In this document: positions 17,393 through 43,156 of the stretch, piece by piece
Layout of the letters: every line of letters starts with the position of its first letter
How positions within the stretch are numbered: the first letter of the stretch is position 1
Source: a virus
Lineage: Duplodnaviria > Heunggongvirae > Uroviricota > Caudoviricetes
Reading direction: 5' to 3' (one strand)
DNA length: 64,000 bases
IMG/VR virus record: IMGVR_UViG_3300024341_000001
The notes under the pieces: generated by a model
What the model was told of the DNA's origin: nothing
The model's input: only the letters and a program-made list of their open reading frames with translations
The model's database searches: none
Program-made: the position numbers and the translations under genes

Positions 17393-17545
17393 TTATTTGG
17401 CTTTCAATAGTTGATACACTTTTCTTGTGCAAGTGGGTTTCATTACTAATGGAACTGATTTTTTATCGTAATATTCTACCCAAGGCGCATCTTTTGTTAT
17501 TTTATAGGCTTTCTTACGCAAAGCCTTAGCTCGTTTTCCATTCAT
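17393..17545 (-). CDS. Small basic phage protein (50 aa)
   Basis: MNGKRAKALRKK...CTRKVYQLLKAK; start overlaps the ligase stop. Confidence 0.55.
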   Translation of the reverse strand: MNGKRAKALRKKAYKITKDAPWVEYYDKKSVPLVMKPTCTRKVYQLLKAK

Positions 17546-18756
17546 TCTTCAACCACGCATTCTGTGTGTATTTTATCTGGTCGTAGTCGCTGAATTATTC
17601 CAAACTGTAATTTTCCAGAATCTTGAATATCCTGATATTCAGCTTCGATTACAAAGTTCTTTTTTACTTTACCAGAATTTAGATCCTTTGTAAGTTGTGC
17701 TAGTTCATCGTGAGTTAGTTTACCAGGGCCGACATATCCACGATCGATAATGGTGCCTTTGGAGTCGTATTGTGCCACAGCAAACTTCGCATAAAAATTG
17801 GCGTGTTTTCCGGATTTTCCCTTAAGCCATTCTGTGACAAAAAAGTCATCAGTTTTGAGAAATTTGTATTTATAACTTCCCGCTCGATGTGCTTCTCCAT
17901 CCATTGTATAAGAGATATATGATTTCTCACCTGGCACACGAAGGACAAAACCCTCCCAATTTTCTTCTTCGGCAAATTGAAGTAGCTCCTTCCAATCTGT
18001 GTATATGGGGGGCACGTTGATATTGATAGATTTGAGTAATTCGAATCGTTTAGTATATTCTCTATTTCCGACAAAATCTCCTTTGAAGAATAGGACATCG
18101 AAGGGGATACAGTTGAATTGTCCATCTTTTGATAACTCGTTATAACGCGATATAGCCTCCGCAGCATCATCTTTACGAACAACCTGCGCTACATGTCTAG
18201 GCGATTCACGTTTTGTTGTGTTGTTATAATATATAAATTCGGTTAATAAAAACGTTTCACTTGGTAGTATAGCCAATAATTTTTTTATAGGCGGTAACTG
18301 TATTAATACGTCTGTACGATCTTCCATACGACGTGAAAATACTTTTTCGGTAGTTTTGCCTTTAACCAAGAATAAGCAATGCCCATCGAATTTTCTTTGT
18401 CCATACGTATTTTTACCATCAATAATTGATTGTGGTGTTTTAGATATAGGTTTATTAGGACAAAATGCTTCTGGTATATTATCCAGATCAATAACAGTTT
18501 GCACTATTGATGAGGTAACTGAAGGCATCTTTGTATCGTAACCTTCTTTTTTCTTAATTACGATCTTGGCTTCCATCTCTGCCAATGCCTGCTCTGCAGG
18601 TGTAGTTTCATTAGCTTTACCGATATTCATTCCCACACATACCTTCACAGTTTCTTGCTGTTTACCGTTTAATTGCCCCCAACGAGTATAGAATTTTTCT
18701 TTTACAGTCCAGAATTCTAATACTTTAATTTTTCCTGTTTTGCTTTTTTGGTACAA
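17542..18756 (-). CDS. lig: ATP-dependent DNA ligase with N-terminal WGR-like region
   Basis: KFDGH motif I, TEF, FDVL, EGFVLR, KYK; OB-fold C-terminus. Confidence 0.85.
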   Translation of the reverse strand: MYQKSKTGKIKVLEFWTVKEKFYTRWGQLNGKQQETVKVCVGMNIGKANETTPAEQALAEMEAKIVIKKKEGYDTKMPSVTSSIVQTVIDLDNIPEAFCPNKPISKTPQSIIDGKNTYGQRKFDGHCLFLVKGKTTEKVFSRRMEDRTDVLIQLPPIKKLLAILPSETFLLTEFIYYNNTTKRESPRHVAQVVRKDDAAEAISRYNELSKDGQFNCIPFDVLFFKGDFVGNREYTKRFELLKSININVPPIYTDWKELLQFAEEENWEGFVLRVPGEKSYISYTMDGEAHRAGSYKYKFLKTDDFFVTEWLKGKSGKHANFYAKFAVAQYDSKGTIIDRGYVGPGKLTHDELAQLTKDLNSGKVKKNFVIEAEYQDIQDSGKLQFGIIQRLRPDKIHTECVVEE

Positions 18757-25432: not shown

Positions 25433-26830
25433 TTATTTTCTAAGTGCGGCAATCATATCTGTTTTATGCTTAAGTAATATATCACTTACACCTACTTTAT
25501 AGATATGTGGGTTTTCAAATCTAGTGAATTCTTTTCCTAAGCTCTGCAGACGACTTTCCGCATAAAGTCTTGATGTACGTACGATAGGATTAGTTATTAC
25601 AACCTTTCCATTTTCCACGCACTTTATTAAAAGCGCTTCGTTTTTTAGATCTCCAACATCTGATAATCTATCTGGATAAACAGGATCATACAACTTCTTC
25701 GGTGGAGGCATTCCTGCGCAAGTAATACCGTCGCCATAAAAAGTGCCGTCGTTATTATAATAACGATACAGATCTTTTGGTCCGGGTAATGTAGCTTTTT
25801 CAGGATTATCTGAAAATTTCATTTTCGGCTGTCCTTGAATCGATGATAGTTTATATACACCATCATGAGCTCCAGCGCCAGCACCGATAATTAAATTTGT
25901 GCCTACACCATAAATATCAATAGGAGCGTCCTGTTCTTCTAGACTACGAATTACATATTCATCTAATTGATTAGATGCAACTATTTTTACATAAGACAAA
26001 TTGGCCTCATCAAGAAGATTTCTTGCTTTTTTGCTTAGGTACGCAAAGTCGCCGCTATCTAATCGGATACCATGTAATTTACATCCGTTGGCTTCAAGTT
26101 CTTTAGCTACGATTATTGCATTCGGCACACCACTTTTTAATGTATCATAAGTATCAACTAGCAACACTGTGTTGTGCGGATATTCTTTAGCAAACGCACG
26201 AAATGCAGTTAACTCGTTTTCAAAACCAAGTATCCAGGCATGAGCCATTGTACCTACCGCTAAGAGATCGTATTTCTTTGCGGCATAAACATTAGAAGTT
26301 GAAGTTGCACCACCAATAATAGCGGCTTTACTCGCCAAAATACCTCCCAACCCCTGTGCACGTCGTAATCCCATATCAATTATAGGTCGTTCGTTTACAA
26401 CTTGTTTTATACGTGCTGCTTTAGTTGCGATCAATGTACTGAAGTTGATAATGTTGAGCAACAGAGTTTCTAATAATTGACACTCTAGCCAACCACCTTC
26501 AATTCGCAGTATAGGTTCATTTGGAAAAACAACTTCGCCCTCACGCACAGAATAGATATCGCCTTTGAATTGAAAGTCACGTAAATAACTCAAAAAGCCT
26601 GCGTGAAAAATTCCTTGATGAAATAAATACGTTGTATCTTCTTCGGTAAATTTCCAATTCTTTAAGATATCTAACAACTCACTTAATCCGGCAAATAATG
26701 CATAACCGCCGCCGTATGGGTTACGTCGATAAAAATAATCATACGTGGCTCGGTCATTATGGCGGCTCATCTGGAAATATCCTTGTGCCATAACAAGTTG
26801 ATACATATCTGTGTATAACCCGTAGTTCAT
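25433..26830 (-). CDS. pncB: Nicotinate phosphoribosyltransferase
   Basis: TDMYQLVM, DMGLRRAQG, GTMAHAW, LVDTYDT, IRLDSGD, GVGT. Confidence 0.93.
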   Translation of the reverse strand: MNYGLYTDMYQLVMAQGYFQMSRHNDRATYDYFYRRNPYGGGYALFAGLSELLDILKNWKFTEEDTTYLFHQGIFHAGFLSYLRDFQFKGDIYSVREGEVVFPNEPILRIEGGWLECQLLETLLLNIINFSTLIATKAARIKQVVNERPIIDMGLRRAQGLGGILASKAAIIGGATSTSNVYAAKKYDLLAVGTMAHAWILGFENELTAFRAFAKEYPHNTVLLVDTYDTLKSGVPNAIIVAKELEANGCKLHGIRLDSGDFAYLSKKARNLLDEANLSYVKIVASNQLDEYVIRSLEEQDAPIDIYGVGTNLIIGAGAGAHDGVYKLSSIQGQPKMKFSDNPEKATLPGPKDLYRYYNNDGTFYGDGITCAGMPPPKKLYDPVYPDRLSDVGDLKNEALLIKCVENGKVVITNPIVRTSRLYAESRLQSLGKEFTRFENPHIYKVGVSDILLKHKTDMIAALRK

Positions 26831-39338: not shown

Positions 39339-39554
39339 TTATTCTTCTATAACACCTGTCAAAAGATTAATACCATTTTCATAATCATTTCCAGATTCTT
39401 CGCAGGTTACTATCCACTTTATTCCACAAACCGGACATTTATAAATATATGTATATGCAGTATTAAAGAATGCTTCGGGGTCTGTTGCTTTTAATTTTTG
39501 TCCGCAAGTACATTTAAACTTCGGAGCTATGAAATTCGGTTCTTTCTGTTTCAT
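39339..39554 (-). CDS. Small Zn-ribbon protein
   Basis: CTCG...CPVC; start revised to MKQKEP. Confidence 0.55.
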   Translation of the reverse strand: MKQKEPNFIAPKFKCTCGQKLKATDPEAFFNTAYTYIYKCPVCGIKWIVTCEESGNDYENGINLLTGVIEE

Positions 39555-39557
39555 TAG

Positions 39558-39630
39558 TAGCGCTAGCCGGGATTGAACCGGCCTTTTGACCTTGAAAGAG
39601 TCGTGTCCTAACCAACTAGACGATAGCGCC
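39558..39630 (-). tRNA. tRNA-Glu(TTC)
   Basis: Loop CTTTCAA. Confidence 0.93.
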
Positions 39631-39634
39631 ATTT

Positions 39635-39901
39635 ATTACCGAGCTTACCCAGCTTTTTGTTTTATCCCGTCATTTCTCTATTGGCCTCTACCCGACCGTT
39701 ATTAGACAAGAAGCGTGCCGTCCTGGGTCTGTTTGAGTTGCATACTTGCTGGTGGTGCGAACGAATAATGTGATGGCTTTGAATTACGTTCGGAAAGATA
39801 GCCACAAACTTCCTCAGTATATCTTGGTCACATTCTTCTCCCACTCGCTTCTTTGTATGAGCTGAAGTTCCTCACCGTGGTGTAACGGGTTCTCTTGTAA
39901 T
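39635..39901 (-). ncRNA. rnpB: RNase P RNA (type A-like catalytic domain, divergent specificity domain)
   Basis: P2 CCCGTTA/TGACGGG; P3 then GAGGAA; P4 ACT[T]CAGCT/AGCTGGGT with bulged U; P5 CATAC/GTATG-CAA; P6 AAGAAGCG/CGCTTCTT; L15 GGGTA; AGAGAAATGA and AAAACAAAA linkers. Confidence 0.85.
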
Positions 39902-39906
39902 TTTTG

Positions 39907-39979
39907 TACCGCTAACGAGATTCGAACTCGTGTATTAAGATTGAGAATCTTATATCCTGGGCCACTAGATGATAGCGGC
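39907..39979 (-). tRNA. tRNA-Glu(CTC)
   Basis: Loop TTCTCAA. Confidence 0.93.
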
Positions 39980-41032: not shown

Positions 41033-43156
41033 TCATCCGTTACTTAAAATTGGTAATTCACATTGTCCGCCTGCGCATACTAATTCTTGCTGTAATGTAG
41101 TACTATCCTCTTCTTCTTTTAGTGTCTTGTAATTTACAGATTTGAACGAAGTTATAATAGTATCCCACAATTGTTTATCTTGCTCTGTTATCACAGCTTC
41201 AAGTGGCGGTTGTTTGAAATCTTTATCACCTGTTTGTGCCAACAATGCTACAGCGGCGAAATTATTTTTGTTATTAAATAAATACTCACGCACCTTGTCC
41301 CATTCATCAGCTTTTACTATGACTGTACATGATACGTTATGCGTAACATTTTTTCTATTAGCAACACTGGTTCCTGGTAATACCCAGTTTTGTTGTGTTG
41401 ATTTAATGAGGTCTAAATGCGCTATGGCATCTAGATCTTTTTTTACTATCGCCCCTTCCGGAACCTCTATAGGAAAGGTGATTACATCGTCTGTTTTATT
41501 TGCGCTCCAAACCGACTCTTCGCTCATGTGCGGATTTGCGATTTTGAAGTGCATATATACCGGATCAAGTTTATTTACTTGCACCCGTCGAAAATATTTT
41601 TTTGCATGATGTGCATGTATACCAGACGCACTTCCCAATACTAAACTTGCGGTTCCTTCTGGTTTTATACACGTCACGCGGGCAGCTTGTTTTATATAAA
41701 GTTTCTCTGCCCACACTTTATTTGTTGCAACTGCTAATTGCGCAGCTTGTTTTTGATACGCAGGATTCAATAATATTTGAGGATTATCCATCATACCGGT
41801 CATTGATACACCCAGCAATGCTTCATCTTCAGTTAGTTTTTTTGCGGCCGGTGATAAATAAGGAAAATATGTGTAGCCGGCCTGTAGTGTCCCAATGATT
41901 GTGGCAGCTTTTACACAAGTTAAATAATCATCTAGTGTATGTATTTCTGCACCATTAATGGAAGTTAAATTACAAAATTGTACGCCACAAACACCATCAT
42001 CAGTTACCGGAATAAAGCCGATCTCTGCACATGGATTAGTACTCATCCATGGATGGTTACCAAATATAAACCCGGGTTCACCGAAATTTTTTGTTCGTTC
42101 GAATATTTCTTTAAACTCTTCTGAAGTTAACTGGTCTCGAAGTAACAAAACACTATTATTACTTCTTGCTCTATGTTTATAAACATCAAACCAACTTATA
42201 CGTTGATTCTGTTGCAAATCAGATAAAGCCCAGTCATCTAGTTCTACCTCGATTTTTTGTTTGCCTGGGTATGCAGGATCTTCTAGTATTACATAACCTT
42301 CGTGTTTATTTGTTTTCGCGTTTAGCTCAAAACGACCTTTTTTATGTACAGTAAAGAATGCTTTTGCATTTATCATATCAATATCGTTTTTATCGAATAA
42401 TACTAACGTAGCACTTCGACGAATACCTCCACTTATTACTGCGTCGGCTACATGCATTAATATATCATATGCATTGATAGATTTTAAATTTAATTGATGC
42501 AAATCCTCGATAATATGGTCTAATAAAAGTTTTATTTTTTTATGAGCATTCTTTAGACCTCTATATCCGGGAGCACGGCCACCACCCGTTTTTAACGGAG
42601 TGCCGGCAGAACGTATTTTACTGTAATCAAACACAATCTTTCTACCTGTGTATGCAGTATTTTTAAAATAACAGTTCAACAACGCTTCTAAACTGTCGGC
42701 CCATCCTTCGATGGTATCTTCTACTGCGTAAGTAATGATTGTGCCTGTTTTGTCTTTTTCAGTTACTAAATTAGGTAATCGGCTAAGAAACATATTTGAT
42801 AAACCAATTCCTACGCCATTACCACATAATAACAAATAAAATATCTCCGAAAACGCACGAAGAGAATCAACATGGCGACAAGCACAATTGAAAATACGTG
42901 ATTGATGTGCTTCAATCGCTTTGCCACCAAATTGTATTGATCTCATTGACGGTACTACACGTTTTACACGCACAAGGTCAAAAGCCCATTCGATTTCTTT
43001 TTTATCTTCATCAGATAGAAATGAATAGTGTTTTTTGTGCATGGATTCAAGTCGTTTTATAGCCTCTTCCCAAGACTCTCTACGACCAGCTTTTTCATTG
43101 TAACGAGCATATTTGCTCGTAAAAATAAAATTGGATAATTCCTCTAAATAATTCAT
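41033..43156 (-). CDS. nrdJ: Class II (B12-dependent, monomeric-type) ribonucleotide reductase
   Basis: IFNC, GGIRRSA, TNPCAEI, FCNLT, TCIKPEGT, C-terminal CAGGQCE; no nrdB nearby. Confidence 0.9.
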   Translation of the reverse strand: MNYLEELSNFIFTSKYARYNEKAGRRESWEEAIKRLESMHKKHYSFLSDEDKKEIEWAFDLVRVKRVVPSMRSIQFGGKAIEAHQSRIFNCACRHVDSLRAFSEIFYLLLCGNGVGIGLSNMFLSRLPNLVTEKDKTGTIITYAVEDTIEGWADSLEALLNCYFKNTAYTGRKIVFDYSKIRSAGTPLKTGGGRAPGYRGLKNAHKKIKLLLDHIIEDLHQLNLKSINAYDILMHVADAVISGGIRRSATLVLFDKNDIDMINAKAFFTVHKKGRFELNAKTNKHEGYVILEDPAYPGKQKIEVELDDWALSDLQQNQRISWFDVYKHRARSNNSVLLLRDQLTSEEFKEIFERTKNFGEPGFIFGNHPWMSTNPCAEIGFIPVTDDGVCGVQFCNLTSINGAEIHTLDDYLTCVKAATIIGTLQAGYTYFPYLSPAAKKLTEDEALLGVSMTGMMDNPQILLNPAYQKQAAQLAVATNKVWAEKLYIKQAARVTCIKPEGTASLVLGSASGIHAHHAKKYFRRVQVNKLDPVYMHFKIANPHMSEESVWSANKTDDVITFPIEVPEGAIVKKDLDAIAHLDLIKSTQQNWVLPGTSVANRKNVTHNVSCTVIVKADEWDKVREYLFNNKNNFAAVALLAQTGDKDFKQPPLEAVITEQDKQLWDTIITSFKSVNYKTLKEEEDSTTLQQELVCAGGQCELPILSNG

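Follow-up and report, generated by a model that had tools for sequence, protein, structure and literature searches.

RNase P RNA (P RNA) belongs to the small set of universal ribozymes and has been regarded as a strictly cellular housekeeping gene. In archaeal type T P RNA, the specificity domain (S-domain) is "essentially a hairpin", all conserved regions (CRs) but CR-II are retained, and the RNA is active (PMC13462272). The theta ribozymes, which are of the minimal hepatitis delta virus-like type, adjoin phage tRNA genes and have been proposed to lessen dependence on host RNases (PMC10879173), and in circular megaphage genomes Rfam detected only tRNAs and a transfer-messenger RNA (tmRNA) (PMC8172020). 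No report of a virus-encoded P RNA was found in the searchable literature. Here, we describe an RNase P RNA-like gene located on the minus strand at positions 39635-39901 (267 nt, P1 to P1) of a 64,000-nt stretch of tailed-phage DNA (Caudoviricetes; IMG/VR record IMGVR_UViG_3300024341_000001), hereafter the window. Judged from its sequence, the element is a homolog of bacterial type-A P RNA (Rfam RF00010) whose catalytic domain looks intact, and it is a stripped-down, remodelled P RNA gene amid the phage tRNA array. We consider this homology, and selection for the structure of the RNA, very nearly certain. What is new is a bacterial-type P RNA that is virus-borne and miniaturised, of which the window copy is an especially divergent, long-arm form.

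An RNase P RNA-like gene between two tRNA-Glu genes

Two covariance models locate the gene. The first, R1, was built from six short-form members of other phages, with the window and its close relatives excluded, and gives one significant match in the window, at 39633-39824 on the minus strand (56.4 bits, E 5e-16), which is also the only one in the entire genome, indicating a single copy. R1 is unable to span an internal insertion of the window copy and mis-sets its 5′ half; on the isolated 5′ fragment of the element it found no match. The second, R2, was derived from a 21-sequence model-guided alignment (A5) containing no long-form member; it matches the element end to end (99.2 bits, E 6.5e-25) and also recovers three relatives, L001, L240, and L120 (three-digit numbers prefixed with L denote loci in other sequences). 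In these four copies, all 12 helices are collinear and essentially perfectly paired. The resemblance to P RNA goes far beyond chance, given the single R1 match in 64 kb, the full-length R2 match, and the collinear helices in the relatives.

The coordinates of the gene, its helices (P, paired; J, joining; L, loop), and related features are collected in the table below. The first-pass annotation, made from the letters alone, had read the catalytic-domain helices of a bacterial P RNA, in the right order, on the minus strand between two tRNA-Glu genes, and every one of them was located where it had been placed. P1 reads AUUAC-AA-GAG / CUC-G-GUAAU, P2 comprises 7 bp (one of them G-U), and P3 is a short hairpin whose length across the phage family ranges from 3 to about 12 bp. 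The hallmarks of type A found in the window include CR-I, with a GAGGAAAGUC-type J3/4 followed by P4, in which 8 of 8 pairs form around a bulged U at position 39866; the P15-L15-P16/17 arm, with its GGU motif and with the P6 pseudoknot to J5/7, the 3′ strand of P6 lying within the P16/17 loop; and CR-IV and CR-V, represented by AGAGAAAUGA-CGGG and AUAAAACAAAA-AGCUGGGU. With 4-nt spacers on both sides, the ribozyme gene unit extends over 39631-39905, and the 3′ trailer of the upstream tRNA-Glu(CUC) is the ribozyme gene itself.

Features of the phage P RNA gene and of associated genes in the window
Feature	Position	Strand	Details
RNase P RNA-like gene	39635..39901	-	R2 full-length match 39633-39903; R1 match; helix table
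tRNA-Glu(CUC)	39906..39979	-	ARAGORN; Rfam tRNA 61.4 bits; directly upstream, 4 nt before ribozyme gene
tRNA-Glu(UUC)	39557..39630	-	ARAGORN; starts 4 nt downstream of ribozyme gene
P1 5′ strand AUUACAAGAG	39892..39901	-	pairs with 39635-39643 CUCGGUAAU
P2 5′ strand CCCGUUA	39883..39889	-	pairs with 39666-39672 UGACGGG
P3 short hairpin CAC-CACG-GUG	39873..39882	-	3 bp; helix table
CR-I: GAGGAA and P4 5′ strand AC(U)UCAGCU	39860..39873	-	pairs with 39647-39654 AGCUGGGU
P5 5′ strand CAUAC	39855..39859	-	pairs with 39741-39745 GUAUG; then J5/15 CAA 39738-39740
P6 pseudoknot 5′ strand AAGAAGCG	39846..39853	-	8 bp with 39708-39715 CGCUUCUU
P15 CUC/GAG, L15 AAACA and GGGUA, P16 GACC/GGUC, P17-like stem, P6 3′ strand	39686..39737	-	
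CR-IV/J18-2 GCCAAUAGAGAAAUGA, P2 3′ strand, J2/4 AUAAAACAAAA	39655..39685	-	17-mer invariant in many members; Rfam alignment
Reduced specificity domain	39752..39844	-	P7, one long hairpin arm, and linker GUUCGCA
P7 GUGG/CCAC	39841-39844 with 39752-39755	-	
P8-like arm, 10-bp stem GAAGAAUGUG/CACAUUAUUC	39763..39838	-	76 nt; stem covaries completely in L001, L240, L120
CCA tRNA nucleotidyltransferase-like protein, 355 aa	50620..51687	-	RNA-binding and HD domains; N-terminal 104 aa unrecognised
237-aa open reading frame with PolyA_pol nucleotidyltransferase head	15113..15826	-	74.6 bits, above cut-off; domain at genome C1:133669-134046

The divergent specificity domain proposed in the first-pass annotation was also borne out, in the form of a domain reduced to P7 and one hairpin. 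When the short-form homolog L122 is aligned to RF00010, approximately 140 S-domain positions (P9-P14, CR-II/CR-III) are replaced by some 40 nt, and 23 P18 model positions by a single nucleotide; among phage forms, P18 is retained by the longer ones alone, L148 for example. The S-domain remnant of the family consists of a covarying 4-5-bp P7 that encloses GAG, a single P8-like hairpin, whose loop in L122 reads UAAC, and a GCUUGGA-like linker. R2 places the insertion of the window copy in the loop of this hairpin, where it forms a variable tip of 56 nt (39773-39828). In the subclade made up of the window copy, L001, L240, and L120, the covarying stem of the hairpin extends to 10-16 bp and the tip measures 56-113 nt. 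Since no sequence or fold is common to the tips of this subclade, the variable tip has the look of an expansion segment, not of a new conserved domain.

Homologs in other large phages and conservation of structure

Homologs occur on about two dozen other large-phage contigs, several of which are 160-500 kb long. An 18-mer from the 5′ core led to L001, which is about 70% identical over its full length and has the same tRNA-Glu/tRNA-Glu setting. The invariant 17-mer GGCCAATAGAGAAATGA, together with a gapped J18/2-J2/4 pattern, led to the IMG/VR copies L120, L121, L122, L124, L145/162/183, L148, L150, L176, L187, and L190, and the same 17-mer to 13 further metagenome loci, L240 among them. Among 35 bacterial or archaeal genome loci containing the 17-mer, none has the element, and a blastn search of 50,697 GenBank phage records with the window region and the L148 and L122 elements returned no relative. 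Exact-word matches at L002, L003, and L125, nearly all 118 matches of a 15-mer, and most of those of the gapped pattern were set aside as chance, and a 214.6-kb scaffold named "Alistipes CAG:435" proved unrelated to the phage. Short phage forms measure about 200 nt. The element stops 0-7 nt short of a tRNA in about 9 of 22 members, and the remainder stand alone with terminator-like ends.

Several of these homologs are matched by Rfam itself. The RNaseP_bact_a model (RF00010) scores L148 at 191 bits (E 2.8e-60), the only value above its gathering score, and its other matches lie at 53-72 bits, namely L122 (72 bits, E 3e-22), L187 (55.5 bits, E about 1e-14), and L176 (53.2 bits, E about 1e-13). 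L121 is matched by RNaseP_arch (35.8 bits, E 8e-7) and L124 by RNaseP-T (RF02357; 37.1 bits, E 1.5e-4). No Rfam RNase P match was obtained for L150, L190, or L162, as is the case for the window copy, and on the scores of L148 on the one hand and of these four copies on the other, the family spans a range from a canonical class-A RNA to copies beyond Rfam detection. Rfam-based annotation thus overlooks such genes. In the alignment of L122 to RF00010, correspondence covers P1, P2, P3, CR-I, P5, J5/15-P15, P16/17, CGGGUAG, CR-IV, CR-V, and the P1 3′ strand: the CR-I/P4 segment agrees with the Rfam consensus GAGGAAAGUCC, the L15 region with CGGGUAG, and CR-IV and CR-V with UAGA-AAUG and AACAGAA-CC-GCUUAC.

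Conservation of the structure was assessed by covariation across 18 distinct sequences of A5, covering 48 pairs in 9 helices. Because MAFFT failed to align the long forms correctly with the short ones and put the 5′ end of L120 in the wrong place, the comparison relied on separate seeds, on alignment guided by the model, and on explicit tables of helices. Standard pairs occupy 94.6% of cells, compared with 67.8% in shuffled controls and no more than 47% after sliding of the partners; compensatory (both-side) changes are present in 39 of the 48 pairs; and the covariation score is 0.689 versus 0.195 in shuffles, none of the 500 shuffles attaining any observed measure. By helix, all ten P1 pairs covary in the family, P2 is 94% paired with compensatory changes in 4 of 6 pairs, P4 is 97% paired and has such changes in 5 of 8 pairs, all five P6 pairs are compensatory, and P15 and P16 are 98-100% paired, with compensatory changes present. 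The covariation of P2 and P6 is unbiased by the alignment, because neither helix was part of the model that made A5. The compensatory changes in P2, P4, and P6 that the first-pass annotation had proposed to seek in related phages are therefore there.

The same pattern is evident within the subclade of the window copy. The subclade sequences differ in P2, P4, P5, P6, P7, the long arm, P15, and P16; P5, for example, reads CAUAC/GUAUG in the window, CACAC/GUGUG in L001, and CACAU/AUGUG in L240, and the sequence of P6 varies among members with its pairing kept in every one. Compensatory changes maintain the structure across phages of 37-59% GC, and the core motifs (GAGGAA, the bulged U, GGGUA, AGAGAAAUGA, and ACA-AA) are near-invariant in a family that has diverged to about 60% identity elsewhere. 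The J2/4 motif of most other members, like the Rfam consensus, is ACAGAA; the window subclade and L303 read ACAAAA.

Some family members show further arrangements. In L176, a 488-kb viral contig, an intact P RNA with a P18-like insertion is accompanied, about 300 nt downstream, by a second copy from which P3 and the 5′ strands of P2 and P4 are missing; this copy adjoins a tRNA and represents either a 5′-truncated pseudogene or a split form (1880-2077 beside 2372-2621, both on the minus strand). In the 168-kb viral contig L148, a near-canonical class-A P RNA with P18 shares one tRNA array with a tmRNA gene (12987-13316 and 10443-10753, both on the minus strand), and in L120 (5303-5806, plus strand) a tmRNA lies about 4.4 kb from the long-form P RNA.

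Genomic setting and proposed function

The record containing the window is 215,016 bp long, with 37% GC and 100% CheckV completeness; a terminase search gave only a weak match. Its sequence is present in lake-water metagenomes, and contigs from partially sharing runs were identical fragments, with no natural variants. ARAGORN predicts 37 tRNA genes around the ribozyme, all on the minus strand, and Rfam finds 34 tRNAs and adds one weak extra to the ARAGORN set, compared with the approximately 39 counted at first pass. None of the 37 tRNA genes encodes CCA. The domains of a CCA-adding enzyme are split over two open reading frames (ORFs) about 35 kb apart. The tRNAs without CCA, the CCA-adding domains, and the P RNA fit a phage-borne tRNA maturation kit. 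The absence of rnpA from the window, noted in the first-pass annotation, extends to the complete 215-kb record, in which RnpA was not found; nor were Rpp29 and Pop5 (PF01868, PF01900).

In light of this setting, the phage P RNA probably matures the 5′ ends of phage pre-tRNAs together with host RnpA; we infer its expression, its catalysis, and its protein partner. The RNA would be co-transcribed within the array of tRNAs and small ORFs and released as the flanking tRNA-Glu genes are processed, with RNase P cutting at the 5′ end of tRNA-Glu(UUC) to generate the 3′ end of the ribozyme. The released RNA would then fold into a type-A catalytic domain, comprising P1-P5, the P15-P17/P6 pseudoknot, CR-I, CR-IV, and CR-V, and, with host RnpA, would strip the 5′ leaders from roughly 37 phage pre-tRNAs, making phage tRNA maturation independent of the host rnpB supply. 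The use of a host protein is a reasonable inference from a genome in which neither RnpA nor Rpp29 or Pop5 was found. With the specificity domain cut to P7 and one hairpin, substrate recognition would fall mainly to the catalytic domain and the protein. Bacterial P RNAs cut back to the catalytic domain are reported to remain active in vitro, especially with protein. Furthermore, a reduced S-domain is compatible with activity, since archaeal type T RNase P is active (PMC13462272).

Several observations weigh against a functional type-A P RNA. Searched with Rfam at the gathering score, the 64-kb window gave no RNase P family match; neither did a 551-nt slice at E values up to 10, nor RF00010 across the whole 215-kb record, so that the window copy does not reach the gathering threshold of type A (100 bits). 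Its single-sequence minimum free energy (MFE) is no better than that of shuffles (z = +0.72). The full S-domain of type A (P7-P14 with the CR-II/CR-III T-loop docking module) is absent, as is P18, the sequence running from the P15 3′ strand straight into GCCAAUAGAG, and J2/4 deviates by a G-to-A change. All sequencing runs that contain the element are DNA runs, and no RNA sequencing run containing it was found. In addition, with CCA encoded in none of the tRNA genes, the GGU of L15 has no CCA partner on primary transcripts; of the CCA-binding motif described in the first-pass annotation, the GGGUA sequence is present and the pairing with CCA is impossible at that stage. The same annotation had held that the lack of a significant covariance-model match would speak against P RNA, and for the window copy Rfam indeed gives none; this literal refutation is overturned by the significant Rfam matches of the homologs and by the compensatory changes.

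Two alternatives accept the structure as real and assign it a different role or partner. An unlikely one is a non-catalytic mimic, which would keep the RnpA-binding surface and act as a sponge or regulator, titrating host RnpA or pre-tRNAs and thereby shutting down host tRNA maturation or re-routing it. The loss of the substrate-recognition S-domain and P18, the change of J2/4 from ACAGAA to ACAAAA, and a phage without its own protein partner speak for such a mimic, and CR-IV and CR-V are also protein-contact regions in bacterial holoenzymes, as in the Thermotoga maritima holoenzyme structure. However, conservation and covariation across very divergent phages extend to elements that the chemistry needs, as opposed to protein binding (P4 geometry with the bulged U, J3/4 GAGGAA, P6, and L15). 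The gene also lies amid substrates that the phage needs matured, and type T RNAs, which are similarly reduced, act as enzymes (PMC13462272).

The other alternative, that a catalytic P RNA works with an unrecognised phage protein or without any protein, instead of with host RnpA, appears improbable. In its favour, RnpA was not found in the genome, and many small unannotated ORFs lie among the tRNAs, including a zinc-ribbon ORF kept in L001; against it, none of the adjacent ORFs has a match in an RNase P protein family, and the conserved 3′ core is like that of RnpA-binding bacterial RNAs. No bacterial P RNA is known to be active without protein at cellular Mg2+, which also counts against this alternative. 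Finally, the element could be what is left of a host rnpB once captured and now decaying, or a structured spacer without trans function. Its invisibility to Rfam and its unremarkable MFE speak for this, and the 5′-truncated copy beside the intact one in L176 indicates that decay occurs in the family, but this alternative is highly improbable in view of compensatory changes that maintain every helix in phages ranging from 37 to 59% GC, core motifs that stay near-invariant against about 60% identity elsewhere, and a single intact copy in a complete genome. The maturation of phage pre-tRNAs with host RnpA remains our preferred interpretation.

The array itself (2472-39979, minus strand) has a distinctive arrangement, in which an ATG follows no more than 6 nt after the 3′ end of 21 of the 37 tRNAs, 18 of these ATGs opening ORFs of 61-187 aa; random positions (2000 trials) gave means of 4.6 ATGs and 1.5 ORFs, with maxima of 12 and 9. 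Such a punctuated array suggests leaderless small-ORF mRNAs freed by tRNA processing. A broader and doubtful extension is a mitochondria-like "tRNA punctuation", in which the phage's own RNase P ribozyme, 3′ processing, and its own CCA-adding enzyme would cut transcripts at every tRNA, freeing tRNAs and dozens of essentially leaderless mRNAs, with the S-domain loss and the new arm retuning substrates or allowing a non-canonical protein or none.

Other features of the array were also recorded. The zinc-ribbon ORF (CxC...CPxC; 39339-39554, minus strand) begins 2 nt after tRNA-Glu(UUC), downstream of the ribozyme, and in L001 this tRNA is likewise followed by a Cys-rich ORF of similar type (from about 2534 onward); the zinc-ribbon ORF had no significant Pfam match and no match to Rpr2/Rpp21, and no RNase P protein family was detected among the neighbouring small ORFs. 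A tRNA with a CUA anticodon (10243-10317, minus strand), labelled "Pyl" by ARAGORN, is amber-suppressor-like, and L150 and L190 have similar tRNA(CUA) genes at a distance of about 5 kb from the ribozyme. The candidate promoter box GGTATAAGA occurs five times in the window, always on the minus strand (3168, 12837, 19377, 53045, and 55911; 0.56 expected), and none of the five copies is near the ribozyme. Interleaved with the array, all on the minus strand, are genes for a class II ribonucleotide reductase (41033-43156), a nicotinate phosphoribosyltransferase (25433-26830), and an ATP-dependent DNA ligase (17542-18756).

A virus-encoded P RNA family would mean that large phages take over even tRNA 5′ maturation, adding P RNA to the tRNAs, tmRNAs, aminoacyl-tRNA synthetases, and CCA-adding enzymes already known from them. 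The phage P RNAs are roughly half to three-quarters the size of Escherichia coli M1 RNA, with the specificity domain lost repeatedly. As natural minimal bacterial-type P RNAs of 200-270 nt, they could provide compact models for catalysis, RnpA dependence, and recognition without T-loop docking, and the tRNA-ribozyme-tRNA layout makes self-liberation and processing order directly testable.

Comparison with known RNase P RNAs and phage ribozymes

The phage RNAs share with bacterial type A (RF00010; E. coli M1 RNA, rnpB) the order and pairing of P1, P2, P3, P4 with its bulged U, P5, P6, P15, the GGU of L15, and P16/17, as well as CR-I (GAGGAA...), CR-IV (AGA-GAAAUGA), and CR-V (ACA-AA and the P4 3′ strand), and phage homologs align end to end with RF00010, one of them at 191 bits. 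They differ from it in having P7 and one hairpin in place of about 140 S-domain positions, in lacking P18, in being encoded by a virus without an rnpA gene, within a tRNA array and often directly next to a tRNA, and, for the window copy, in falling below RF00010 detection and carrying ACAAAA for ACAGAA.

Archaeal type T (PMC13462272) offers a structural parallel for the S-domain, which in the phage is likewise essentially one hairpin, with the catalytic domain and the P15-17/P6 pseudoknot kept, and L124 matches RF02357 weakly (E 1.5e-4). In sequence, however, they belong to bacterial type A, with their best Rfam affinities to bacterial class A; against the type T gathering score of 60, the window copy has no match and L124 reaches 37 bits. 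Moreover, no archaeal partners of the Pop5, Rpp29, or Rpp30 type were found in the phage genome, and the window subclade, unlike type T, re-expands its hairpin with a variable tip. The reduction of the S-domain in the phage and in archaeal type T is independent and convergent.

The theta ribozymes, like the phage P RNA, are phage-encoded and located in tRNA clusters (PMC10879173). Whereas they are small, self-cleaving, and proposed to act in cis on 3′ trailers (PMC10879173), the phage P RNA has an unrelated fold and is predicted to be of the trans-acting, multiple-turnover type, directed at 5′ leaders.
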